In this document: in pieces, positions 1-12,179 of the stretch | Position numbering within the stretch: position 1 is the stretch's first letter | How the letters are laid out: each line of letters starts with the position of its first letter | Source: Candidatus Micrarchaeia archaeon | GTDB taxonomy: Archaea; Micrarchaeota; Micrarchaeia; Burarchaeales; JACRGF01 | Reading direction: 5' to 3' | Length of the DNA stretch: 64,000 bases | Assembly (NCBI GenBank): GCA_038870455.1 | Contig: JAWCPB010000002.1 | Span: 12,452-76,451 of the forward strand | Notes under the pieces: generated by a model | Database searches by the model: none | Told to the model about the DNA's origin: nothing | The model's input: only the letters and a program-made list of their open reading frames with translations | Translations under genes and position numbers: made by a program

Positions 1-420
1 GACGGCACGGACAACTTCGCCGCGCGCTATGCGATAAACGACGCCGCCGTGCTCAACAGGACCCCGCTGTTTCACGCCGCCGTTCTGCAGTACGAGGGAC
101 GCGTCTTCACCGTCATTCCCGGAAAGAGCGCCTGCCTGCGCTGCGCCTTCCCGGTCATCCCGCCAAAGGGAAGCATCCCCACCTGCAGGGAGGCGGGAGT
201 TCTCGGAAGCGTCATAAGCGTGCTGGCAGGCATCCAGGCCACTGAGGCGATCAAGCACCTGGCCGGCCAGGGCGCGCGCCTGACCGACAGGATGCTGGTT
301 TTCGACGGCAGGACCATGTCTTTCGACGAATTCCGCTTCAGGAGGAGGAGGGAGTGCAGCGCGTGCGGCCAAAAGGGCTTCACTTCCTCGCCGGTGTATC
401 AAGAGGTTTGTGACATATGA
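1..420 (+). CDS. ThiF/MoeB/UbaA E1-like adenylyltransferase (5' truncated)
   Basis: Frame open from base 1: DGTDNFAARYAINDA, CLRC, PTCREAGVLG (catalytic Cys), C-terminal CSAC Zn site. Confidence 0.9.
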   Translation, partial: DGTDNFAARYAINDAAVLNRTPLFHAAVLQYEGRVFTVIPGKSACLRCAFPVIPPKGSIPTCREAGVLGSVISVLAGIQATEAIKHLAGQGARLTDRMLVFDGRTMSFDEFRFRRRRECSACGQKGFTSSPVYQEVCDI

Positions 421-656
421 AACAGATCCACGAGCTTGACCTGAGGGGCGAGAGGTGCCCTGACACCTTCACCTACACGAAGATTCGGGCGGAGGAGCTG
501 CGGGAAGAGGGCAGGGCCGGCGACATCCTCAAGGTGATTGTCGACAACGAGCTCAGCGCCAGGGACGTTCCGGCGAGCATGCAGCTCGAGGGGCACAGGG
601 TGATAGAGGTCAGGAAGGCGAACGGGCTGTGGGAGCTTTTTTTCGAGATTAAATAG
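417..656 (+). CDS. tusA: TusA/SirA-family sulfur carrier
   Basis: LDLRGERCP motif, 79 aa, ATGA overlap with the E1 gene. Confidence 0.85.
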   Translation: MKQIHELDLRGERCPDTFTYTKIRAEELREEGRAGDILKVIVDNELSARDVPASMQLEGHRVIEVRKANGLWELFFEIK

Positions 657-1706
657 GTGGTTGAAATCAGGGAATGGGATGATGCTCTTGGCCTGACCCC
701 GCGGCTTGACTGCGGCCTGTGCGGGCTGGACTGCGGCGCGCTGGCCCGCAGGGCGCTCGCAGGAGCGAGCGAGTTCTCGGAGTGCATTCCCGCCAGGCAG
801 AGCCCGCAGGCCGCGCCCGCGTTCGCAGAGCTGAGGCGAAAGCACTCGCCCTCGCGCCTGCCGGAGCCGAGGAAGGACGTGCTTGTCGTGCGCCCATGCA
901 TCGATGTCGCGAACAGGGTGAGCGGCGAGGCGAACATCCGCCACTGGTCGCCATCCCCCTACCCGCCCTTTGACTCGGTGTATCTGGAGCATGCGTTGCG
1001 CACCAGCGGAGCCTTTGGCAACGTCAAGTACTCGCCCTCGCTTGGCATCGCAAACCTTCTGCTCAGCGAAGGGAGAGGAGTTGTCTTCTCCCGCTCCGGA
1101 AAAGCCATCGCGCGCGCCGCTTTCGACCTCAATGACTTGGAGAAAACATTCTCACTCGTTTCCCTGGTCTCCTGGCCCGCCGCGGTCTGCGGCGAATGCG
1201 GTTCTCTCGCAATCGACTGCGCCATAGGCGCGTGCAACGCCTGCGGCGCCTGCCACGCCTCGCGCGTTCCCCCCTCCACAAACCTGCAGTCATCTGTACC
1301 GAGCCGCCGCGCCACCCCAGCCGTTTCCCTCCTCTCGCCCGCGGCGAATCACGCGATTGAAGGGATCGGAGCAGAGCCTGCACTCGAGAGTGCCGAGAAA
1401 AGAGCGTTCGCGCTGCTGCTCGAGGGCGATGCCGGCGCGCTGTTCCTCCTTGGGCTCGCCAAGCAGCTTCGCTTTCTCGCAGACGGGCTGGCCAGGGCAG
1501 GAGGGGGCCGGCAGCTGAAGAAAATCGCCAGGGAGGCCTGGGAGGCTCTCGAGACGGGGGATAAGAAAAAGGCGGAGCACGCTGCCGGAGATGCCGCGCG
1601 GGCTTTAGCCGAGCTCAAGCGCGGCTTTTCAGAAGGCGGGCAGGTTTGGGCCGCCAAGGCCGCAGGGGCATCGCTTAAAATAGCACGCGCTGCAACAAAG
1701 CTCTGA
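657..1706 (+). CDS. Cys-rich putative Fe-S/metal-binding protein
   Basis: N-terminal DCGLCGLDC...EC (FeS-domain-like), central beta-rich segment, CGEC-x5-DC-x3-AC-xx-C-xx-C cluster. Confidence 0.6.
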   Translation: MVEIREWDDALGLTPRLDCGLCGLDCGALARRALAGASEFSECIPARQSPQAAPAFAELRRKHSPSRLPEPRKDVLVVRPCIDVANRVSGEANIRHWSPSPYPPFDSVYLEHALRTSGAFGNVKYSPSLGIANLLLSEGRGVVFSRSGKAIARAAFDLNDLEKTFSLVSLVSWPAAVCGECGSLAIDCAIGACNACGACHASRVPPSTNLQSSVPSRRATPAVSLLSPAANHAIEGIGAEPALESAEKRAFALLLEGDAGALFLLGLAKQLRFLADGLARAGGGRQLKKIAREAWEALETGDKKKAEHAAGDAARALAELKRGFSEGGQVWAAKAAGASLKIARAATKL

Positions 1707-1715
1707 GGTGCGCGA

Positions 1716-3191
1716 ATGGCGCTGCGCGTGCACAACACCCTATCCAAGAGGCTCGAGGAATTTGTTCCGGGCGAGCCGGGCTTGGTGCGCATGTACGTGT
1801 GCGGCCTGACCCCATACGACAGATTCCACCTCGGCCACGCGCGTACTTACGTTGCCTTTGACATCATAAGGCGGTACCTCGAGTTCGTCGGCTATCGCGT
1901 GCTGCACGTTCAAAACATCACTGACGTGGATGACAAGATACTCAACCGTGCAAGGGAGCGCAGCGAGGAGCCTCTGGCGATGGCGGAGCACTTCAGCAAG
2001 CTCGCCATGCAGGAGTCCGACCTCCTCGGCATACGGAGGGCGCACCACTATCCCAAGGTCAGCGAGCACATTCCAGAAATAATCTCCCTCGTCGAACGCA
2101 TTGCCAGCAAGGGCTTTGCCTACGAGACAGAGGACGGCGTGTATTTCGACGTCGAAAAATTCCCTGGCTATGGCAAGCTCAGCGGGCAAAAGCTTGATGA
2201 GATAAAAGCTGGCGCGCGCATCGCCGTGGATGAGAGGAAGAGGCACCCGGCTGACTTCGCGCTTTGGAAGAAGTGGAAGCCCGGCGAGGCGCTCGCCTGG
2301 GACTCGCCCTGGGGGCGGGGCAGGCCGGGCTGGCACATCGAATGCTCCGCCATGAGCGCGAAGTACCTCGGCCAGTCGTTCGACATCCACGGCGGGGGCA
2401 GCGACCTCATCTTTCCCCATCACGAGAACGAAATCGCCCAGAGCGAGGCGGCGAGCGGAAAACAGTTTGCGCGCTACTGGCTTCACACAGGCTGGCTGAC
2501 CGTGAAGAAGCAGAAGATGGCAAAGTCGCTCAAGAACTTCATCACGGTGGAGGGGGCGCTGGCCAAGTGGGAGCCCGAGGTGCTGCGGCTGTTTTTCGCC
2601 TCCACACACTACCGCTCCCCGCTCGACTTCAACGAGGGCTCGCTTGAGGCCGCGCGCGCGGGCTTGGCCACGCTGCGCAGCGCGCTGTACAACGCCGCAG
2701 AGGCAAGGCCCTCGAGGGGCCGCCCGGCAAAGTGGCTCGAGGAGGCTGTTGCCAAGCACAGGGAGGCCTTTCTGGCGGCCATGGACAACGACTTCGACAC
2801 CAGCACCGCGCTCGCCCACCTGTTCGAGATCGCCAAGCACATAAACACGTACATCAACGAGGGGAAAATCGACAGCCACGTGCTCGAGCACGCGGTCGCC
2901 GAGTACAAGAGCCTCGCGGGCATACTCGGCCTGCTCGAGAGCCTTCCCAGGAAAATAGCGAGTGAAGAGGATACCGCCCGGCTCAGGGTGCTTGCGGCCT
3001 CGCTGGGCGTGGACAGTGAAAAAGCAGAGCGCCTCGGCTTCACCGAGCTCATGTCGCTCGTGATCGCCGAGAGGGAGAAGGCGAGGAAGGCAAAGGACTT
3101 CGCGAGGGGCGACGAGATCAGAAAGGCGCTGCGCGGCCTCGGCATAGCCATCGAGGACACTCCAAGGGGAACGGTCTGGCGGTTTGCATGA
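1716..3191 (+). CDS. cysS: cysteine--tRNA ligase
   Basis: MYVCG, HLGH (HIGH), PGWHIECSAM, FPHHENE, KMAKS (KMSKS), DALR-like domain. Confidence 0.98.
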   Translation: MALRVHNTLSKRLEEFVPGEPGLVRMYVCGLTPYDRFHLGHARTYVAFDIIRRYLEFVGYRVLHVQNITDVDDKILNRARERSEEPLAMAEHFSKLAMQESDLLGIRRAHHYPKVSEHIPEIISLVERIASKGFAYETEDGVYFDVEKFPGYGKLSGQKLDEIKAGARIAVDERKRHPADFALWKKWKPGEALAWDSPWGRGRPGWHIECSAMSAKYLGQSFDIHGGGSDLIFPHHENEIAQSEAASGKQFARYWLHTGWLTVKKQKMAKSLKNFITVEGALAKWEPEVLRLFFASTHYRSPLDFNEGSLEAARAGLATLRSALYNAAEARPSRGRPAKWLEEAVAKHREAFLAAMDNDFDTSTALAHLFEIAKHINTYINEGKIDSHVLEHAVAEYKSLAGILGLLESLPRKIASEEDTARLRVLAASLGVDSEKAERLGFTELMSLVIAEREKARKAKDFARGDEIRKALRGLGIAIEDTPRGTVWRFA

Positions 3192-4213
3192 CTGCGCGTG
3201 AGAAGGAAAAGGAGGCTCTCTACTGGCGCGTGCTCAAGGGCGACGCGCTGCAGTGCACGCTGTGCCCTCACTGGTGCACAATTCTCGAGGGAAGAAGGGG
3301 AAGGTGCAGGGTCAGGGAGAACAGGCGCGGCAGGCTCTACTCGCTGGTCTACGGCAAGCCGTCGGCGATTCAGATAGACCCCATTGAGAAAAAACCGAAC
3401 TTTCACTTCCTGCCCGGCTCGCTGTCGTATTCCATTGGCACGGTGGGCTGCAACCTGAGGTGCGCCTTCTGCCAGAACTGGCAGCTTTCGCAGGCGAGCC
3501 CCGGCGACCTGCCGCATTATGATCTCCCACCACAGGCGGTTGTTGACGAGGCGCTGCGGTACGGCTGCGCCTCGATCGCCTATACCTACAACGACCCAGT
3601 GGTGTTCATCGAATACGTCATGGACACGGCCAGGCTCGCCCGTCCGCGAGGGCTGCGGAGCGTTTTCGTCACGGCTGGCTTCATCAACCCGCAGCCGCTC
3701 GACGAACTGTGCGGGCTCATCGACAGCGCGCATGTCGATCTCAAGGGATTCAGCGAGCAGTTTTACAGGGAAGTGAGCGGTGCCCGCCTCGCCCCAGTGC
3801 TTGCCACGCTGAAGACGCTCAAGAAAAGGGGCATCTGGTTCGAGGTCATTCACCTCACCGTGCCGGGCCTCTCGGACGACCCTGATGAGATTCGCATGAT
3901 GTGCGAGTGGATGCGGGAGAACATCGGCACAGAAGTCCCGCTTCACTTCACCCAGTTCCACCCGGAGTACAAGATGCTGACCACGCCCGTCACCCCAGTC
4001 GCATCGCTCGAGCGCGCTCACGCCATCGCGAAAGACGTGGGCCTAGAGTATGTCTATGTCGGCAACGTTCCCGGCCACCCTCTCGAGAACACCTACTGCC
4101 CGAAATGCAACAACCTCCTCATCGAGAGGTGGGGGTTCGAAATACTAAAGAATCTAATACCGGAAGGTATGTGTCCTTACTGCGGCAAAAAACTTGCTGG
4201 AGTATGGCGATAG
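3188..4213 (+). CDS. amrS: AmmeMemoRadiSam-type (PflA-like) radical SAM enzyme
   Basis: CTLCPHWC..C, DPIEKKP.FHFLPG, GCNLRCAFCQNW, YTYNDP, C-terminal CPKC...CPYC. Confidence 0.9.
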   Translation: MTAREKEKEALYWRVLKGDALQCTLCPHWCTILEGRRGRCRVRENRRGRLYSLVYGKPSAIQIDPIEKKPNFHFLPGSLSYSIGTVGCNLRCAFCQNWQLSQASPGDLPHYDLPPQAVVDEALRYGCASIAYTYNDPVVFIEYVMDTARLARPRGLRSVFVTAGFINPQPLDELCGLIDSAHVDLKGFSEQFYREVSGARLAPVLATLKTLKKRGIWFEVIHLTVPGLSDDPDEIRMMCEWMRENIGTEVPLHFTQFHPEYKMLTTPVTPVASLERAHAIAKDVGLEYVYVGNVPGHPLENTYCPKCNNLLIERWGFEILKNLIPEGMCPYCGKKLAGVWR

Positions 4214-4332
4214 GCCAGGGTGGCAGAGCGGCTATGCAGCCGGCTGCAGACAACCTTTTGCCGGCGGTCCGGCAAAAGCGTTGACGGAAAAGCAGTCACC
4301 GGCGCAGGGGAGTTCAACTCTCCCCCCTGGCT
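4214..4332 (+). tRNA. tRNA-Cys(GCA) with a 48-nt intron at 37/38 (4250-4297)
   Basis: Acceptor GCCAGGG/CCCTGGC+U73, anticodon stem GCCGG/CCGGC, CT-GCA-G, T arm GGGAG-TTCAACT-CTCCC; BHB helix CTGC/GCAG with AGA and TCA bulges. Confidence 0.93.
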
Positions 4333-4441
4333 TTTAACTTCGCCAGAGAACGGAGCAGCGCGTGCAGCCTTGCTGAAGAGCGCGCCCTCAGCTTGAGCGG
4401 GCGGCGCATGGAAAAGAACAGGCGCGGCGCGCAGCCCCCTG

Positions 4442-4708
4442 TCAGGCCCATATCACCCTCCCGTAGTAGTTGGCTTCGGCTCTTGTCTTGTAGCAGACAA
4501 AGCACACGGCATAACCGTTCTCGTACATCATCTCGGCATAGCTCGTCTCGAGCCCGCACACCATGCAGCGGTCGCGCGGGATCTCCCAGCGTGGGTTTGG
4601 CGTGGAGGACAGCCTCTTTTCGGCAGGTGCCGTTTCCCTAGGCTCTTCCTCCGCAAGGAGGTTTTTGAGTGCCTGGATGAGGCCCGCGACAGAGACCATG
4701 CTCCACAC
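4442..4708 (-). CDS. small CxxC...CxxC zinc-finger protein
   Basis: CMVC-x17-CFVC; AT-rich promoter region upstream; exact start uncertain. Confidence 0.55.
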   Translation of the reverse strand: MWSMVSVAGLIQALKNLLAEEEPRETAPAEKRLSSTPNPRWEIPRDRCMVCGLETSYAEMMYENGYAVCFVCYKTRAEANYYGRVIWA

Positions 4709-4804: not shown

Positions 4805-5791
4805 ATGCCCGGCTCTCAGATGAAGCTCGATGCGCTCGACCGCCGCATTCTTTTCGAGCTCGACGGAAATTCCCGGATGCCGCTGACGCGCATGGCGAGG
4901 AGGCTGAAGACCTCCCCGCAGCTGGTCGCCTACAGAATCCGCTCGCTCGAGAAGAGAGGCGTCATAAAGGGCTACACCGCGCTCATCGACTACAAGAGCG
5001 CGGGTTACACCTTCTACACAGCCTACTACGCCCTGAAGAACATTTCCCCGCGTGTTGTGGCCAAATTCTGCAGGTTTCTGCTCGCCGAGCCCAAAGTGTG
5101 CATCCTCCTCGAATGCGAGGGGCGGTGGGATGTCATGGTTGGAATACTCGCCCGCGACCCCGTTGAGTTCTACAACATCCTGCTCGGCATCAGAAACCGC
5201 TTCGGCGGCTACATCCTGGAGAGAACCATCGTGACGCACATCGGCGCGCGGCACTGCAGGAGGAAATACCTGTTGAGCAAGGAGTTCTCTGAGGGAGAGT
5301 TTGCCCACATCACGGGAGGAAAGCTTTCGCGCACCAGGCTTGTCAGCGGGGACGAGGAACTCCTGCGCGTGCTCACAAACAATGTCAGGGCCAGCGTGCT
5401 AGAGCTGGCTTCGGCGACAGGCGAGAGCCCTTATGCCGTGAGGAGGAGGCTCAAGCGCCTTGTCAGCGATAGGATTATACTGCGCACGGGTTTTCTGCCA
5501 GACCACGCGCGCTACGGCTATGCCTACAAGCGCGTACTGCTGTCGCTCCACCACACCACAGCCGGAAAGTTCGAGCTGCTGAAGAGCTTTTTCGTCCAGC
5601 ATCCGAACGTGAAGAGGGTAACGAGCGCTTTCGGCAGGTACGACCTGATAGTCGATGGAGAGTTCGAGCACGAGAGGGAGTTCAGGGCTTTCATCACCGA
5701 GCTGAGAACGAGGTTCGGCGGTGTGATTGCTCACTATGACACGCTCGAGGTGCTGAAAGTCCACCGGTTCCGCTTCTTCCCGTGCGCCTAG
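4805..5791 (+). CDS. tandem (double) Lrp/AsnC transcriptional regulator
   Basis: LDALDRRILFELDGNSR wHTH plus RAM domain, repeated in the second half (LLRVLTNNVRASVLELA). Confidence 0.88.
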   Translation: MPGSQMKLDALDRRILFELDGNSRMPLTRMARRLKTSPQLVAYRIRSLEKRGVIKGYTALIDYKSAGYTFYTAYYALKNISPRVVAKFCRFLLAEPKVCILLECEGRWDVMVGILARDPVEFYNILLGIRNRFGGYILERTIVTHIGARHCRRKYLLSKEFSEGEFAHITGGKLSRTRLVSGDEELLRVLTNNVRASVLELASATGESPYAVRRRLKRLVSDRIILRTGFLPDHARYGYAYKRVLLSLHHTTAGKFELLKSFFVQHPNVKRVTSAFGRYDLIVDGEFEHEREFRAFITELRTRFGGVIAHYDTLEVLKVHRFRFFPCA

Positions 5792-5794
5792 CCC

Positions 5795-6004
5795 CTATTT
5801 TCGCTTGCCCGCCCTGCCCGCCTTGGCCTGCTGGTGGAGGGTGTAAAAAGCTGCCCCGATTGCCAGCCATATCACGGCCAGGTCGAGCCCTTTGAAGGTG
5901 TAGGGCGCATTGAGGCTGAACAGCCCGCTCAGCGCGATGACAACGCTGAGCGCCATGAAGCCCACGCGGAGCCACCACAGGTATTTCTCGGCCATGCCCG
6001 GCAT
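5795..6004 (-). CDS. small two-TM membrane protein
   Basis: Two hydrophobic stretches and a basic C-tail. Confidence 0.55.
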   Translation of the reverse strand: MPGMAEKYLWWLRVGFMALSVVIALSGLFSLNAPYTFKGLDLAVIWLAIGAAFYTLHQQAKAGRAGKRK

Positions 6005-6067
6005 TGGAGCGCTGTAAATTTAAACCTTACGCAAAGGGCTTTTAATCTCGGGCCGCGAAATAACGCC

Positions 6068-7060
6068 ATGGTTCTCCTGTCCATCGTGTTGGGCGTGCTC
6101 GCGCTCTACCTCATACTCAAGGGCTCGGAGTGGGTCACGGACTCCAGCGTGCACGTCGCCCAGAGGCTCAGCACCACAAACGTCGCGGTCGGCCTCATCC
6201 TCGTGGCGGCGCTGCTGTCGCTGCCCGAGCTCGTCGTCGCGCTGTCGAGCGTGGCCAAGGGGCACACCGACATGGGCATTGGCGTCACGCTCGGCTCGGT
6301 CATCGTAAACATCGGCCTCATCGTAGGAATAAGCGCGCTCATCAGGCCGCTGCGCGTATCGCGCGTCATGATCACGCGCGACGCGGTGTTCATGGTCGTC
6401 ATCACCATCGTGGTCGCGGCCATCGCGCTCGAGGACCTCGAGCTCACGCGCGTTGACGGCTTCGTCCTCCTCCTGCTCTTCATCCCGTACTTCGTGAATG
6501 TGTACGAGCAGGAGCGCGTGCTCACCGCCAAGCAGAGGGTGGTCGAGACGCATAAGATAGTCAAGAGCCTGCATCTGTTCGGAAAGATGGGCTTCGGCAA
6601 GCTGGTCGTGCACGACGGCCTCAAGGTCTTCCTCGCTGGCGTGGCGCTGCTGCTGGTCGGGGCGGAGTTCTTCACCCAGTCCATGGTCGGCCTAGCGGGC
6701 TTCTTCAGGCTCTCCGATTTCGTGGTCGGCATCACGCTCGGCGCGCTCGGCCCGAGCCTGCCGAGCCTCGCGAGCGCCATTCAGGCTGAAAAGCGGGGTT
6801 ACGAGGAGCTGGCCGTGAGCGAGACGATAGGAAGCAACATCTTCACCCTGCTCATCACGCTCGGGGCGATCGCGCTCGTCACCCCCCAGTCCATCAACTT
6901 CGTCACGGCGGTGGTCACCACGCCGGCCATTCTCCTGCTCAGCTTTCTGCTTCTCTTCTTCATGATAAGGGGCAGGATAGGCAGGCGCGCCGGCGCGGTG
7001 CTGCTGATGATATACCTCGCCGCCACCCTGCTGCAGCTCGTCGTGCCGAACCTCTTCTGA
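6068..7060 (+). CDS. Na+/Ca2+ (CaCA, YrbG-like) antiporter
   Basis: alpha repeats SLPE...GSVIVN and SLPS...GSNIF; ~10 TM; ATG at 6068. Confidence 0.88.
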   Translation: MVLLSIVLGVLALYLILKGSEWVTDSSVHVAQRLSTTNVAVGLILVAALLSLPELVVALSSVAKGHTDMGIGVTLGSVIVNIGLIVGISALIRPLRVSRVMITRDAVFMVVITIVVAAIALEDLELTRVDGFVLLLLFIPYFVNVYEQERVLTAKQRVVETHKIVKSLHLFGKMGFGKLVVHDGLKVFLAGVALLLVGAEFFTQSMVGLAGFFRLSDFVVGITLGALGPSLPSLASAIQAEKRGYEELAVSETIGSNIFTLLITLGAIALVTPQSINFVTAVVTTPAILLLSFLLLFFMIRGRIGRRAGAVLLMIYLAATLLQLVVPNLF

Positions 7061-7069
7061 GGTGCTGCC

Positions 7070-7690
7070 ATGCAGAAAGTCGTCGCGCTTCTCTCGGGCG
7101 GCATCGACTCGCCTGTCGCGGCCTGGCTGGCCGCGCGCGCCGGCCTCGAGCCCGTGCTCGTGCATTTTGACAACAGGCCCTTTTCCTCGGGCGACAGCCT
7201 AGTGTGCGTGCTCAAGGTCGCCGCCAGGCTGCGGGAAAAGCTCGGAAAACTTGAGGGCTATCTCATCCCGCACGGCGGCGATGTCGCCGCCTTCCTGCGC
7301 GCCTGCTCTCCACACAACACGTGCATCCACAGCAGGCGGCATATGCATCGCGTGGCGGCCCTGCTCGCCGCCAGGCTCGGCGCGTCCGCGCTCGTGGCCG
7401 GCGACTTCATCGCCTCGAAGGCCTCCCAGACTCCGCAGAACCTCGCCGTGCTCGACAGCGCCTCGTCCCTGCCTGTTCTCAGGCCGCTTGCCGGGCTCGG
7501 CAAGGAGGAGATAGAGCGCATGGCCAGGCTGCTGGGGACGTTTGAGCTCGCCTCGCTTCACCCGACCTGCACCGCAACGCCCGAAAAGCCAAGCACAGGA
7601 GCGCGGCTGGAGGAGGTTCTTGCGGACGAGGCGAAGCTTGACGTTGGAAAAATGGCAGCGCGCTCTCTCGCGGCCGCGACGCCGTTGTGA
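7070..7690 (+). CDS. ThiI-like PP-loop sulfurtransferase, catalytic domain only
   Basis: LLSGGIDSPVAA, ASQT, VLRPL, K.EI...A...GT; no THUMP domain. Confidence 0.8.
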   Translation: MQKVVALLSGGIDSPVAAWLAARAGLEPVLVHFDNRPFSSGDSLVCVLKVAARLREKLGKLEGYLIPHGGDVAAFLRACSPHNTCIHSRRHMHRVAALLAARLGASALVAGDFIASKASQTPQNLAVLDSASSLPVLRPLAGLGKEEIERMARLLGTFELASLHPTCTATPEKPSTGARLEEVLADEAKLDVGKMAARSLAAATPL

Positions 7691-8648: not shown

Positions 8649-10147
8649 CCTCTTCCTCTCCTCATCCTCTGCAGCAGCGCGAGGAGCCTCGCAAGCTCAG
8701 CTCTGCTTGTTTTTCCTTTTTTCCTGGCGGAAAGTGCGCGAATGATTCTGCCCGCTTCAGAAAGCAGCTCTCTCTTCGCATCCTCTTCCCTTCTTTTGGT
8801 TTGAACGCTTTTTTTGACGTCAATCTTTTTTTCTTCAACCGCGCGCTCTACCAGCGCGTGCCGTGGGGTCTGTGCTTCGGTTGTTGCCACTGGCCGGCCG
8901 CTGTCTGCAGGATTTTGTGCGATCTCCTCCGCGGCTTCCAACAGGCCTGTCTCAAAAGCACAGGTGGTCGCGTTTTGCTTTGCTGCCACATTCGTTTTCG
9001 CCTGCGGCAAGGCTGCCGCAGCGCGCGTTTTTTCTGCGGGAGCCAAATGGCGCGCATCCAGCTCGGCGTGCCCGGCCATGTTTGCGAGCATCGCGCTTGT
9101 TTCAACGCTCCTTTCGCTCGAGCGGGCGTGCGTCAGAGCATAGCGCGCGTTTGCCGCGCGTTCGGCCACGCTCGCGCGCTCGCTTGTTTCAACGCGGTTT
9201 TTTTTGTCCGAGCGAATGTGCGTTTGGGCGTTCGAACAGCGCGCCTCTTCCGCGCGTCCGGCCTGGCGGTTTTCCCGGCTCACGGCGACGACCTCTTCTC
9301 TCAGCGGCTGAACGTCCGCGAAAAGCGCGCGGGCGTTTTCGCCTGCTCGCGCCGTTCCCGTGCCATCCCCAAGCGCGCTTTCGGCAAACGCTGGCTCTCT
9401 GGTCGTGCGCTCCTTCTCAGCGAGCTCGTCAGATGCTTCCCTTCGCGCGCTCGAAGTGTCCGCTTCTGCCGCAGCATTTTCCTGCGCGAGGCCAACATTC
9501 GCCGCCCGTGAGTCGCTGTTGCCAAACAGCAGGCCCCGCGCGTCTTCAATTCTTTTCACGGCGTTCGCTCGCGCCCTCTCCATCACCAGGCGGATGCCTC
9601 TGCTCGCGTCGATTTCGACAAGGCGCTGCGTCACTGTGGGATGCGCGAGCATCCTGGCGAGCGCATTCGCCTGCGCGGCCCGCAGCTCTTCAGTGAACGC
9701 CTTGAGCTTGCACGTCCACACCTCTCCCTCAAAGTAGGACTGCGATTTGGGGCAGGCGAGCGTGATGTCGGCGCTGACGCCTTCATCGAATTTCAGCAGT
9801 AGCTCGACGGGTTTGCCTATGCGAATTTTTCCAAGGCCCGGGAACACCGCTCCGGCGGGCGTGTCGATGTATGGAAGGCCAAACGAGCCGTTGTCGCCGC
9901 GTATGTAGCCCTGCCATCCAGCCGCCTCCCGCTCGCGCACCCCATCGACGGCCTCAATCCACTCGCCGAGCGCGTTTTTACGGATTTCGAGGCGGTGCCC
10001 CAGCTCGCGCCTGAGCGCGTCGAGAACAGTCTCGCCTCTGAATGCTTTGAGGAAAAACTCGCTCCTGCCTCCTCCGCTGTCGAGCGTGAGCTTTATGCGC
10101 ACGCTTTCCCGCCGGCCGGCGTTCGCCCGAGCCACTCCCCTAAGCAT
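8645..10147 (-). CDS. hypothetical protein with a DUF4430-like N-terminal domain and a long low-complexity Ala/Glu/Arg region
   Basis: GETVLDAL...GEWIEAVDGV...GWQGY resembles the DUF4430 beta-grasp; 500 aa ORF. Confidence 0.55.
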   Translation of the reverse strand: MLRGVARANAGRRESVRIKLTLDSGGGRSEFFLKAFRGETVLDALRRELGHRLEIRKNALGEWIEAVDGVREREAAGWQGYIRGDNGSFGLPYIDTPAGAVFPGLGKIRIGKPVELLLKFDEGVSADITLACPKSQSYFEGEVWTCKLKAFTEELRAAQANALARMLAHPTVTQRLVEIDASRGIRLVMERARANAVKRIEDARGLLFGNSDSRAANVGLAQENAAAEADTSSARREASDELAEKERTTREPAFAESALGDGTGTARAGENARALFADVQPLREEVVAVSRENRQAGRAEEARCSNAQTHIRSDKKNRVETSERASVAERAANARYALTHARSSERSVETSAMLANMAGHAELDARHLAPAEKTRAAAALPQAKTNVAAKQNATTCAFETGLLEAAEEIAQNPADSGRPVATTEAQTPRHALVERAVEEKKIDVKKSVQTKRREEDAKRELLSEAGRIIRALSARKKGKTSRAELARLLALLQRMRRGRG

Positions 10148-11627: not shown

Positions 11628-12179
11628 ATGGAAATAGAGTTGAGGAAAGCCGCTTATCTTCTCGCCCCGCGCATTGTCGCGCTCGTCACCACGCTGAGCG
11701 CGGACGGAAAGCCCAACGCGGCGCCGTATTCCTTCGTGGGCCCTATCAGCTTCACCCCACCGCTCGCCTATTTCGCTGCCGCGCCCGACAGGGTTTCGCT
11801 CGCGAACGCGCGCGCGACAGGAGAGTTCATCCTCAACCTGGTGGGCGAGGATTTCGGCCAGCAGGCGGTTTTCTGCGAGGAAAAGCTTGCGGACAGGAGC
11901 AGCCGTGTTGAGAAAAATAACCTCCATTGGGCCGCTGCAAAAGTCGTCCGCGTGCCGCGCATTGCCGAGGCGAAAACATTTCTCGAGTGCGCTGTGCACC
12001 GGATTATCGAAATTCCAGAGTCAGACCATGTGCTGGTTGTCGGCAAAGTCCTGCACGCGGAGTGCGCGCTGGCGAAAAACGGGAGGGCGGACCACGATGC
12101 GCTGCGCTACCTCATGCATGTCGGGGGCAACGAGTTCAGGTCTGTCGGGAAAGGGCTCGTGCTGGAGAGGAGGAAGTAG
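11628..12179 (+). CDS. flavin reductase-like FMN-binding protein
   Basis: PR.VALVTT...PNAAPYS, N..ATGEF.LN, LEC, DH.LVVG.V. Confidence 0.9.
   Translation: MEIELRKAAYLLAPRIVALVTTLSADGKPNAAPYSFVGPISFTPPLAYFAAAPDRVSLANARATGEFILNLVGEDFGQQAVFCEEKLADRSSRVEKNNLHWAAAKVVRVPRIAEAKTFLECAVHRIIEIPESDHVLVVGKVLHAECALAKNGRADHDALRYLMHVGGNEFRSVGKGLVLERRK

Follow-up and report, generated by a model that had tools for sequence, protein, structure and literature searches.

Mycobacterium tuberculosis has a protein-thiocarboxylate route to cysteine, formed by CysO, CysM and MoeZ, with Mec. Ubiquitin-like carriers are likewise part of the archaeal SAMP/UbaA/NcsA and the Thermus TtuB/TtuC/TtuD/TtuA systems, and for the archaeal route through SAMP2, UbaA and NcsA a 2017 review gives the sulfur donor as unknown (PMC5372739). 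Here we analyse a locus in a stretch of 64,000 nucleotides (nt; hereafter the window) from a genome-reduced Candidatus Micrarchaeia archaeon (GenBank assembly GCA_038870455.1, contig JAWCPB010000002.1, positions 12,452 to 76,451, forward strand). Its first 4,332 nt hold the end of a gene for an E1-type adenylyltransferase (E1b), followed by genes for the sulfur carrier TusA, an iron–sulfur (Fe-S) protein that we call X, cysteinyl-tRNA synthetase (CysS or CysRS), the radical S-adenosylmethionine (SAM) enzyme AmrS and tRNA-Cys; a gene for a ubiquitin-like carrier, Ubl2, lies directly upstream. On the strength of its sequence, we read the Ubl2-E1b-TusA-X-CysRS-AmrS-tRNA-Cys run as the distal operon of a cysteine regulon with four promoters, with a second outlet to tRNA thiolation possible, and we give this reading about an even chance of being right.

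As in the mycobacterial route, a carrier of the ThiS/MoaD fold that ends in GG, an E1 and a CysM-type pyridoxal phosphate (PLP) sulfhydrylase are found in one cluster. Unlike MoeZ, which is a rhodanese-bearing E1, E1b has no rhodanese domain, and a separate, coupled TusA together with X stands in its stead. Further differences are that the cluster has no gene for a JAMM hydrolase (the genome has one Prok-JAB gene, elsewhere, at C4:31983-32609), that cysS and tRNA-Cys belong to the operon, that the host is an archaeon, and that there are two carrier/E1 pairs, of which the second (Ubl1/E1a) is accompanied by ThrC-like, CysK and CysE genes.

With the SAMP and Ttu systems the locus shares a ubiquitin-like carrier, an E1 without a rhodanese domain and, in the genome, a TtuA/NcsA-like enzyme (PMC5372739). 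Unlike in those systems, the gene for this PP-loop thiolase is unlinked to the operon (contig C23), and the operon appears to be co-regulated with cysteine-biosynthesis genes; TusA occupies the place of TtuD, the rhodanese protein of Thermus. The E. coli IscS-TusA relay is resembled in the TusA fold with its conserved Cys and in the presence of a cysteine desulfurase in the genome (on C22, with IscU on C11), which adjoins the operon in a related genus; it differs in that TusBCD, TusE and MnmA partners are missing here and TusA is coupled to an E1. The genes of the AmmeMemoRadiSam system (TIGR04335-04337), namely those for AmrS, AMMECR1 and Memo, are all present; they are dispersed, and amrS lies within the cysteine operon in one genus only. 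X, finally, has an N-terminal 4-Cys domain like that of the corrinoid Fe-S protein (CFeSP) large subunit and of RnfB, and by its fold may resemble TBP in one repeat and PhoU in a helical bundle. Its TBP-like part is a single repeat with an invariant Pro-Cys, and its context is desulfurase and IscU genes, not transcription or phosphate transport.

Judged by its gene content, the operon appears to be new among systems of protein-thiocarboxylate carriers, in that TusA and X would replace the rhodanese domain and cysS and tRNA-Cys are on board. Searches of one literature library found no paper that joins TusA, thiocarboxylate and CysO, and those for a CysO/CysM thiocarboxylate in archaea turned up only coral papers.

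Gene content of the run and its upstream cluster

The genome that holds the window (G000) was compared with its congener (G001), with a genome of the same family and another genus (G002), and with a set of 41 related genomes, from which 30 loci per query were taken with 1.5-kb flanks. Contig C2 of G000 holds the window, and the upstream locus is given in C2 coordinates. The run closes a cysteine cluster of ~13 kb whose genes all share its strand. In order, the preceding ~9 kb of C2 encode a TauE/SafE-family permease, an unknown protein of 289 amino acids (aa), a ThrC-like PLP enzyme, Ubl1, E1a, CysK, CysE, an ATP-grasp enzyme, CysM (TIGR01136, 376.6 bits; cut-off 344.15), an unknown 145-aa protein and Ubl2, whose gene is 540 nt downstream of that for CysM and is followed by E1b.

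Ubl2 belongs to the ThiS family (PF02597, 38.9 bits; cut-off 22.5) and has the C-terminus ...AVSGG. Ubl1 likewise scores above the cut-off, ends in GG and is 51% identical to Ubl2; these are the only two ThiS-family genes in G000. Among solved structures, 4n6e_B (E 5e-9) and 3dwg_C (E 1.4e-8) come closest to Ubl2, and we take both to be CysO carriers; chain 3dwg_A is cysteine synthase B. E1b is encoded at C2:12077-12871 (264 aa), beginning 375 nt before the window with a GTG start 5 nt past the TGA of Ubl2. ThiF is its sole domain, and in the alignment with its G001 and G002 orthologues it keeps the catalytic-loop Cys (PTCREAG) and two CxxC pairs. Searches of the G000 assembly, which is 90% complete, found neither a rhodanese domain nor MoaE. 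There is a single TusA match in G000, and its Cys in RCPD, the conserved Cys-Pro motif, is invariant across three orthologues. CysS is of full length, with both the DALR (DALR_2) domain and the anticodon-binding end (CysS_C).

The junctions within the run are tight. The stop codon of E1b overlaps the start of tusA in ATGA (-4), as does that of cysS with amrS; X follows TusA with 0 nt between them, and cysS follows X after 9 nt. The tRNA acceptor stem begins at 4214, and the tRNA therefore begins on the base following the amrS stop (TAG, 4211-4213). An earlier reading made from the sequence only had reported this spacing (ATGA at 417 and 3188, a 0-nt gap at 656/657, a 9-nt gap, one strand) and the tRNA directly past amrS, and the five open reading frames (ORFs) and the tRNA gene itself confirm this. 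The coupled units that it described are present; the E1 gene, which it had placed first, is cut by the window and preceded by a carrier gene. It had also suggested a look upstream for a SAMP or ThiS gene, which the ThiS/CysO-like Ubl2 turns out to be. All coordinates are collected in Table 1.

Table 1. Features of the run, of the DNA on either side of it and of the dispersed intron module. Plain numbers are window positions; C numbers are contigs of G000 unless another genome is named.
Feature	Coordinates	Strand	Assignment or remark
E1b, C-terminal 139 codons	1..420	+	ThiF/MoeB/UbaA-type adenylyltransferase; ThiF 112 bits
TusA, sulfur carrier, 79 aa	417..656	+	PF01206 57.4 bits, cut-off 28.6
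X ('FeS protein' of the sequence-only reading), 349 aa	657..1706	+	GTG start; PF04060 19.3 bits, under cut-off 23
CysS/CysRS, class I cysteine-tRNA ligase	1716..3191	+	TIGR00435 519 bits, cut-off 340
AmrS, radical SAM enzyme of AmmeMemoRadiSam system	3188..4213	+	TIGR04337 392.7 bits, cut-off 220
tRNA-Cys(GCA)	4214..4332	+	discriminator U73, no encoded CCA; ARAGORN with introns allowed
tRNA-Cys intron, 48 nt, position 37/38	4250..4297	+	bulge-helix-bulge junction; dispersed hairpin module
Small Cys-rich ORF downstream of tRNA	4442-4708	-	colinear in G001
Tandem Lrp/AsnC-type regulator	4805-5791	+	colinear in G001
Na+/Ca2+ exchanger-family membrane protein	5834-7060	+	colinear in G001
ThiI-type PP-loop enzyme	7073-7660	+	2.7 kb downstream; colinear in G001
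CBS-domain HTH gene	C2:2865-3425	-	divergent, adjoins first operator site
Operator sites	C2:3464-3479, 5219-5234, 9058-9073, 11724-11739		upstream of window; palindrome, 30 nt before TATA box
Operator sites in relatives	G001:C13; G002:C60
Intron module, example sites	C43:4978-5123, C39:4098-4232, C33:9135-9213, C44:68-190, C1:57289-57444		sites of the module

A shared operator ties the run to cysteine genes

A search for archaeal promoter signals found AT-rich islands confined to the longer intergenic gaps of the cluster. The palindrome TATTC-N6-GAATA occurs three times in the 1.04-Mb assembly, always on C2, before the TauE gene, the ThrC-like gene and Ubl2, and each copy lies exactly 30 nt upstream of the TATA box TTATTTA, which in the case of Ubl2 is at C2:11753. 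A fourth site, with one mismatch (AATTC) and equal spacing, precedes the ATP-grasp/CysM unit; a relaxed scan of the whole genome gives these four sites only, and 200 shuffles of the 17-kb locus put the number of matches expected at 0. The composite of operator and TATA box is found at 4, 3 and 3 sites in G000, G001 and G002, with 0 in the reversed control. The three G002 sites stand before CysE-like, ThrC-like and CysK genes on a contig other than that of the carrier operon, so the cysteine synthase of G002 is found on another contig behind the same operator; the carrier operon of G002 has a CATTC variant at the same spacing.

No operator/TATA composite was found within the Ubl2-to-tRNA run. 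A scan for bacterial-type promoters, which does not cover archaeal ones, gave no promoter, and the best plus-strand terminator-like match of the bacterial-type scan was the T-arm of the tRNA itself. By sequence, the run from Ubl2 to the tRNA would form a single transcription unit of the cysteine regulon; the spacing and the conserved promoter and operator ahead of it support the earlier claim of one tightly coupled unit.

The gene for a helix-turn-helix (HTH) protein with a CBS domain adjoins an operator-bearing promoter divergently in G000 and in G002, where the protein is 60% identical; G001 has the gene too, at 81% identity. This protein is the obvious candidate for the regulator of the operator, and X is a second candidate. 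The TATA-phased operator and the conserved HTH gene together offer a compact, testable archaeal cysteine regulon.

At the upstream CysK gene (locus L001, C2 7567-7600), ACG stands at the position of the ATG start of the G001 orthologue, and beyond the TGA of E1a the CysK frame simply continues, in phase with it. A protein begun at the first standard start codon would be shorter by ~43 residues and would lose the segment around the PLP-binding lysine. The gene may be damaged, may use an unusual start codon or may be reached by read-through of the stop.

Conservation of the operon among relatives

The order carrier-E1-TusA-X-CysS-tRNA-Cys is kept in all three genomes of the family. G001 is colinear over the whole cysteine cluster. 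In G002, carrier, E1 and TusA are followed by a 140-aa protein that corresponds to the middle domain of X, and then by CysS, a 176-nt spacer and tRNA-Cys. CysRS identity between the two genera is 57-58%, and the tRNA-Cys region of G002 has 44% G+C, against 56-63% for the contigs of G000. Between G000 and G001, the operon genes other than amrS are under purifying selection, to a degree similar to amrS.

A cysS orthologue is present in 40 of the 41 related genomes, and among 30 CysS loci the E1, TusA and X genes are adjacent in G000, G001 and G002 only. An E1 gene near cysS in G003 and G038 was rejected as the same unit, the protein being ~30% identical, the gene 6-8 kb off and the other genes missing. 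Across the relatives, TusA is found in 4/41, a ThiF-type E1 in 14/41 and a cysteine synthase above cut-off in 15/41. The tRNA-Cys gene adjoins cysS in 10/30 loci, downstream of it in the three family genomes and upstream of it in seven genomes of another family.

In that other family of the order (L061-L067; G008, G019, G022, G026, G028, G027 and G024), tRNA-Cys lies 12-17 nt upstream of cysS on the same strand; the pairing of tRNA-Cys with cysS therefore recurs in a second form.

These comparisons bear on the simplest alternative, in which the genes have no functional link, their packing reflects genome compaction and the palindrome is a non-regulatory repeat. The genome is ~1 Mb and gene-dense, overlaps are usual in such genomes, and amrS (see below) shows that unrelated genes do get packed in. 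The order is kept, however, across two genera of diverged CysRS and differing DNA composition, and the exact 30-nt phase of operator and TATA box recurs at 4 + 3 + 3 sites with none in the control and none expected. We regard the absence of any link as unlikely.

The presence of cysS in a sulfur-carrier operon, where all three family genomes keep it, would also be accounted for if CysRS fed the relay, its synthesis of cysteine persulfide supplying TusA. E. coli and mammalian CysRS make cysteine persulfide by way of Lys residues of the KIIK and KMSK motifs (PMC5660078). The CysRS of the window keeps KMAK at the KMSK motif, and a second, shorter CysRS paralogue exists; on the other hand, KIIK reads KILN, with 1 of the four Lys lost, and the cluster copy is the full-length orthologue of that in 40/41 relatives and is followed by the only tRNA-Cys, which fits housekeeping. 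A supply of persulfide by CysRS is in our judgement very unlikely.

The second CysRS paralogue (C5:24742-25971) has 409 aa and is ~40% identical to the cluster copy. It matches query residues 3-390 only and hence is without the C-terminal anticodon-binding part. Shorter CysRS paralogues similar to it occur in several relatives.

Protein X

X consists of an N-terminal 4-Cys Fe-S domain of the CFeSP/RnfB type, a middle domain predicted to be a single TBP-like repeat, a Cys-rich stretch (C178, C181, C188 and others) and a C-terminal PhoU-like helical bundle. A word-index protein search with X returned 2 proteins only, X itself and one 70%-identical relative; when 1.8 billion cluster representatives were scanned in full with HMMER, 74 matched, 23 of them at E <= 1e-10. 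Most family members are of 330-430 aa and match residues 1-210 of X. Their alignment shows four N-terminal Cys, an invariant P80-C81, S126, G130 and G148, and C178/C181/C188; PF04060 is present in 22 of the 24 members aligned. Beyond this domain no NCBIfam or other curated model matches X, and no curated family has its combination of domains. Source annotations of the homologues read 'hypothetical', '(Fe-S)-binding' or 'ArsR family metal-binding regulator', and the nearest ESM Atlas cluster is an archaeal hypothetical family with PF04060.

Against the Protein Data Bank (PDB), the X profile finds the corrinoid Fe-S protein 4djd_C (E 1e-10) and the RnfB Fe-S domain, and weakly TBP (E 3e-4). The AlphaFold model, built with 63 sequences, is of high confidence (pLDDT 92.4, pTM 0.92). 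The top Foldseek rows with this model are all TBP, over ~93 columns at a root-mean-square deviation of 2.6-3.3, with E only ~0.06. A wide structural search (VIA) relates residues 217-349 to PhoU (1t72_A, Z 9.9) and residues 67-179 to TBP (Z 7.8-7.9, with 5fur_A at 7.9). These Z values are too low for a safe assignment from fold alone, that of PhoU falling under the tool's own limit for helical bundles, and the fold matches carry no information on function.

Within its own phylum, X is matched in 11 of 401 genomes; beyond the N-terminal Fe-S domain, the match extends only to the three genomes of the family. No relatives were found in metagenomes with X and the 70%-identical protein (P0002) as queries. 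From a nine-sequence alignment, seven distant loci were examined (1 Hodarchaeota, 4 Thermoplasmata, 1 Bathyarchaeia and 1 Atabeyarchaeia). A class-V aminotransferase (cysteine desulfurase) gene is adjacent in 6/7, with Hodarchaeota, Thermoplasmata and Atabeyarchaeia represented, IscU in 4/7 and ThiI in 3/7, with a small HTH gene upstream in 4/7; up to 6 kb away, none of the seven has a gene for a carrier, an E1, TusA or CysS. Because its homologues adjoin cysteine desulfurase, IscU and ThiI, X is, by gene neighbourhood, a protein associated with sulfur mobilisation, and it belongs to an uncharacterised archaeal family. It may act as a sulfur acceptor, an electron donor or a sensor of Fe-S status. 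With ~74 cluster representatives, and with desulfurase and IscU genes next to it in Thermoplasmata and Asgard archaea, the family offers a lead on Fe-S and sulfur trafficking in archaea that reaches far past the present one.

Proposed sulfur-activation pathway

In the pathway that we propose, E1b would adenylate the C-terminal glycine of Ubl2. Because E1b has no rhodanese domain, the translationally coupled TusA would deliver persulfide sulfur in its place, and X, an Fe-S protein with relatives beside cysteine desulfurase, would help this delivery. The resulting Ubl2-thiocarboxylate would, on the pattern of the CysO/CysM route, give its sulfur to the regulon's own CysM/CysK-type sulfhydrylases, and may also feed the TtuA/NcsA-like tRNA thiolase of the genome. 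With CysRS and the single tRNA-Cys gene under the same promoter, cysteine supply and charging would rise together, and AmrS would ride on the transcript without a mechanistic part. For a CysO-like role of the carrier speak the nearest solved structures, the CysM, CysK and CysE genes in the cluster and the operator, which ties the carrier operon to cysteine genes only. Gene content, spacing, conservation and the operator are observed here; we infer co-transcription, the direction of sulfur flow and the consumer of the thiocarboxylate.

Several observations weigh against this pathway or against parts of it. The conserved partners of X (IscS, IscU and ThiI) draw their sulfur from cysteine; to make cysteine from cysteine sulfur is futile, and an inorganic sulfur source must therefore be assumed. 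The mycobacterial CysO route needs a JAMM hydrolase to release cysteine, and the cluster has none. In G002, the operon has no CysM beside it; its neighbours are a cysteine desulfurase, just upstream, and a PP-loop protein that also carries NFACT-R, an RNA-binding domain. The operator before the carrier operon has one mismatch there. All 14 E1-bearing relatives have a TtuA/NcsA-like gene and 8 of these 14 are without a cysteine synthase above cut-off, so that the E1s of this class may mainly serve tRNA thiolation. As to a single transcription unit, internal promoters are possible in view of AT-rich codons 61-74 nt before the tRNA and of 7 codons unchanged between G000 and G001 at -45 to -23. 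In addition, the 3' end of tusA has a T7 run in its coding strand (window 641-647, C2:13088-13094), 1 of 2 such runs in 17 kb of this G+C-rich DNA, which could be a partial archaeal terminator between tusA and X.

Much of this evidence would fit a general sulfur relay for RNA thiolation, in which sulfur passes from cysteine through desulfurase, X/TusA and E1b-activated Ubl2 to TtuA/NcsA-like, and perhaps ThiI-like, thiolases; cysS and tRNA-Cys would then be linked only through cysteine as a shared substrate. Such a relay is favoured by the desulfurase and NFACT-R neighbours of the G002 operon, by the linkage of the X family to IscS, IscU and ThiI, by the TtuA-like gene in G000 and in every E1-bearing relative, by the ThiI gene downstream of the run and by the open donor entry of the SAMP2/UbaA/NcsA route in the review cited above. 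The G002 desulfurase is 42% identical to those in the distant X-homologue loci. Yet the operator is common to cysteine-biosynthesis promoters only, with none before the TtuA-like, ThiI and desulfurase genes, and the closest solved relatives of Ubl2 are presumably of the CysO type. Moreover, 17 of the 31 relatives that have a TtuA-like gene are without an E1 match, and the TtuA-like enzyme would therefore be independent of E1 in this class. We consider a relay dedicated to RNA thiolation possible but doubtful.

To return to the cysteine-regulon pathway, its delivery step may extend further. We suggest, tentatively and as a possibility of somewhat low likelihood, that the missing delivery of sulfur to archaeal E1s without a rhodanese domain is the work of TusA together with the X family. 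X would be a new Fe-S partner of desulfurases, with a TBP-like fold and a PhoU-like bundle, that passes persulfide to TusA or gates its passage, and TusA would load the E1-bound carrier adenylate. Since the review lists the sulfur donor as unknown, the E1-TusA pair of a rhodanese-free genome is worth testing; with the E1b stop overlapping the tusA start, it is a concrete pair for the question of how rhodanese-less archaeal E1s are supplied with sulfur. If delivery by TusA and X is true, it would answer the 'S-donor?' entry for archaeal SAMP/UbaA pathways and would make the operon a channel that is complete from sulfur to Cys-tRNA, governed by one operator, in an archaeon with a reduced genome.

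AmrS in the operon

AmrS occurs in 38 of the 41 related genomes, in unrelated contexts; 30 AmrS loci were compared, and eight further genomes have matches outside that set. It adjoins cysS in 2/30 loci, those of the window genome and its congener, which are of one genus. In G002, tRNA-Cys follows cysS without amrS, which is on another contig. The partner genes are elsewhere in G000 (two copies of AMMECR1, on C29 and C20, and Memo on C6), and in 3/30 of the relatives' loci these genes flank amrS. Between G000 and G001, the 341 codons of amrS show 132 synonymous and 28 non-synonymous differences, which indicates purifying selection.

The sequence-only reading had AmrS act with the persulfide relay and CysRS to modify tRNA-Cys or to carry out a thio- or Fe-S-linked modification. 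The translational coupling of amrS to cysS and its abutment on the tRNA in two genomes, the purifying selection and the undefined substrate of AmmeMemoRadiSam are in line with such a role. However, the adjacency is confined to one genus and missing from the G002 operon, the AMMECR1 and Memo genes are elsewhere, and AmrS is far more widespread than TusA (4/41) or E1 (14/41) and therefore works without the relay. We rate a joint action of AmrS with the relay as highly improbable: AmrS as a working partner of relay or CysRS is not borne out, and no sign points to a modification of tRNA-Cys. Conservation of gene order fails for the position of amrS and holds for carrier, E1, TusA, X, cysS and tRNA-Cys, so that of the original interpretation the linkage of sulfur relay, cysS and tRNA-Cys stands and the part of AmrS falls.

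Instead, amrS looks like a working housekeeping gene that entered the operon of one genus between cysS and tRNA-Cys and is carried along on its transcript; by its distribution, the insertion looks like a recent passenger rather than a mechanistic partner. For AmmeMemoRadiSam, this neighbourhood is not usable as evidence of a tRNA or sulfur role of AmrS. Going by titles and the opening of abstracts, none of the papers found that use the term AmmeMemoRadiSam deals with the function of the system; one passage cites Burroughs 2019 for 'Memo-Ammecr1 systems'.

The AmrS match is split in two inside one open frame in four relatives (G021:C71, G004:C12, G009:C6 and G034:C19). In G021 the frame has 805 aa with ~1.3 kb between the halves, and an intein or large insertion is possible; in the other three the insertion is short and lies near residue 105.

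The tRNA-Cys gene and its intron

By default, ARAGORN finds 0 tRNA genes in the window and Rfam, at the gathering threshold, gives 0 tRNA matches; both scans miss tRNA-Cys because of its 48-nt intron. With introns allowed, ARAGORN gives tRNA-Cys(GCA). Read from the sequence, the acceptor stem has 7 bp (4214-4220/4325-4331) and the discriminator is T (U73) at 4332. Where exons and intron meet, the folded pre-tRNA shows the archaeal bulge-helix-bulge, a 4-bp helix with a 3-nt bulge on either side (z = -4.07). This is the only convincing tRNA-Cys in the G000 assembly. The tRNA-Cys of G001 also abuts the amrS stop. It agrees with that of G000 base for base in the 5' exon and at the T-arm/acceptor end, and differs from it by a single C/T change in the variable region; its intron is of 17 nt and without the hairpin module described below, and ARAGORN mis-splits that gene as 'Arg'. 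In G002 the intron has 95 nt.

The body of the window intron is one of many copies of an oriented hairpin module, CAACC(C)-UUUU-stem-loop-stem-AAAAG-CGUUGACGGAAAAG. The 18-nt 3' motif of the module (<=1 mismatch) is found 45 times in G000 and 8 times in G001, and in 12 of the 41 relatives, against 1 in the reversed control. Copies 92-97.5% identical over 36-40 nt lie at 15 other G000 sites. Units of 58-61 nt and of 83 nt are repeated in tandem, often where a contig ends. The module also occupies the introns of a tRNA-Val(CAC), of the gene mis-called 'tRNA-Pyl' and of another tRNA. Covariation in the hairpin is modest, with compensatory changes at 2 pairs among 17 units, and no Rfam family matches the module. 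The dispersed module resembles a mobile tRNA-intron element, which it may possibly be; the transposition of tRNA introns is an idea already known (PMC4090602).

At C1:79819-79941 of G000, ARAGORN reports tRNA-Pyl(CUA), split by a 50-nt intron at 36/37. This call was rejected: it is probably a mis-split tRNA-Gln(CUG), since an intron at 37/38 gives the Gln reading. The intron of this mis-called tRNA is 90% identical over 40 nt to that of tRNA-Cys.

In the AT-rich spacer between cysS and tRNA-Cys of G002 (L039, contig C57, 11600-11753) there is a partial duplicate of the tRNA-Cys 5' end (GCCAGGATGGTAGA...). By its position and sequence, the duplicate may be the scar of a rearrangement or of integration at the tRNA.

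Downstream genes and the assembly

Four genes follow the run (Table 1). The DNA of window 1-4400 occurs in 4 DNA sequencing runs, which belong to a single metagenome study of hot springs; no RNA run is listed for it. The G000 assembly has 1.04 Mb in 51 contigs.

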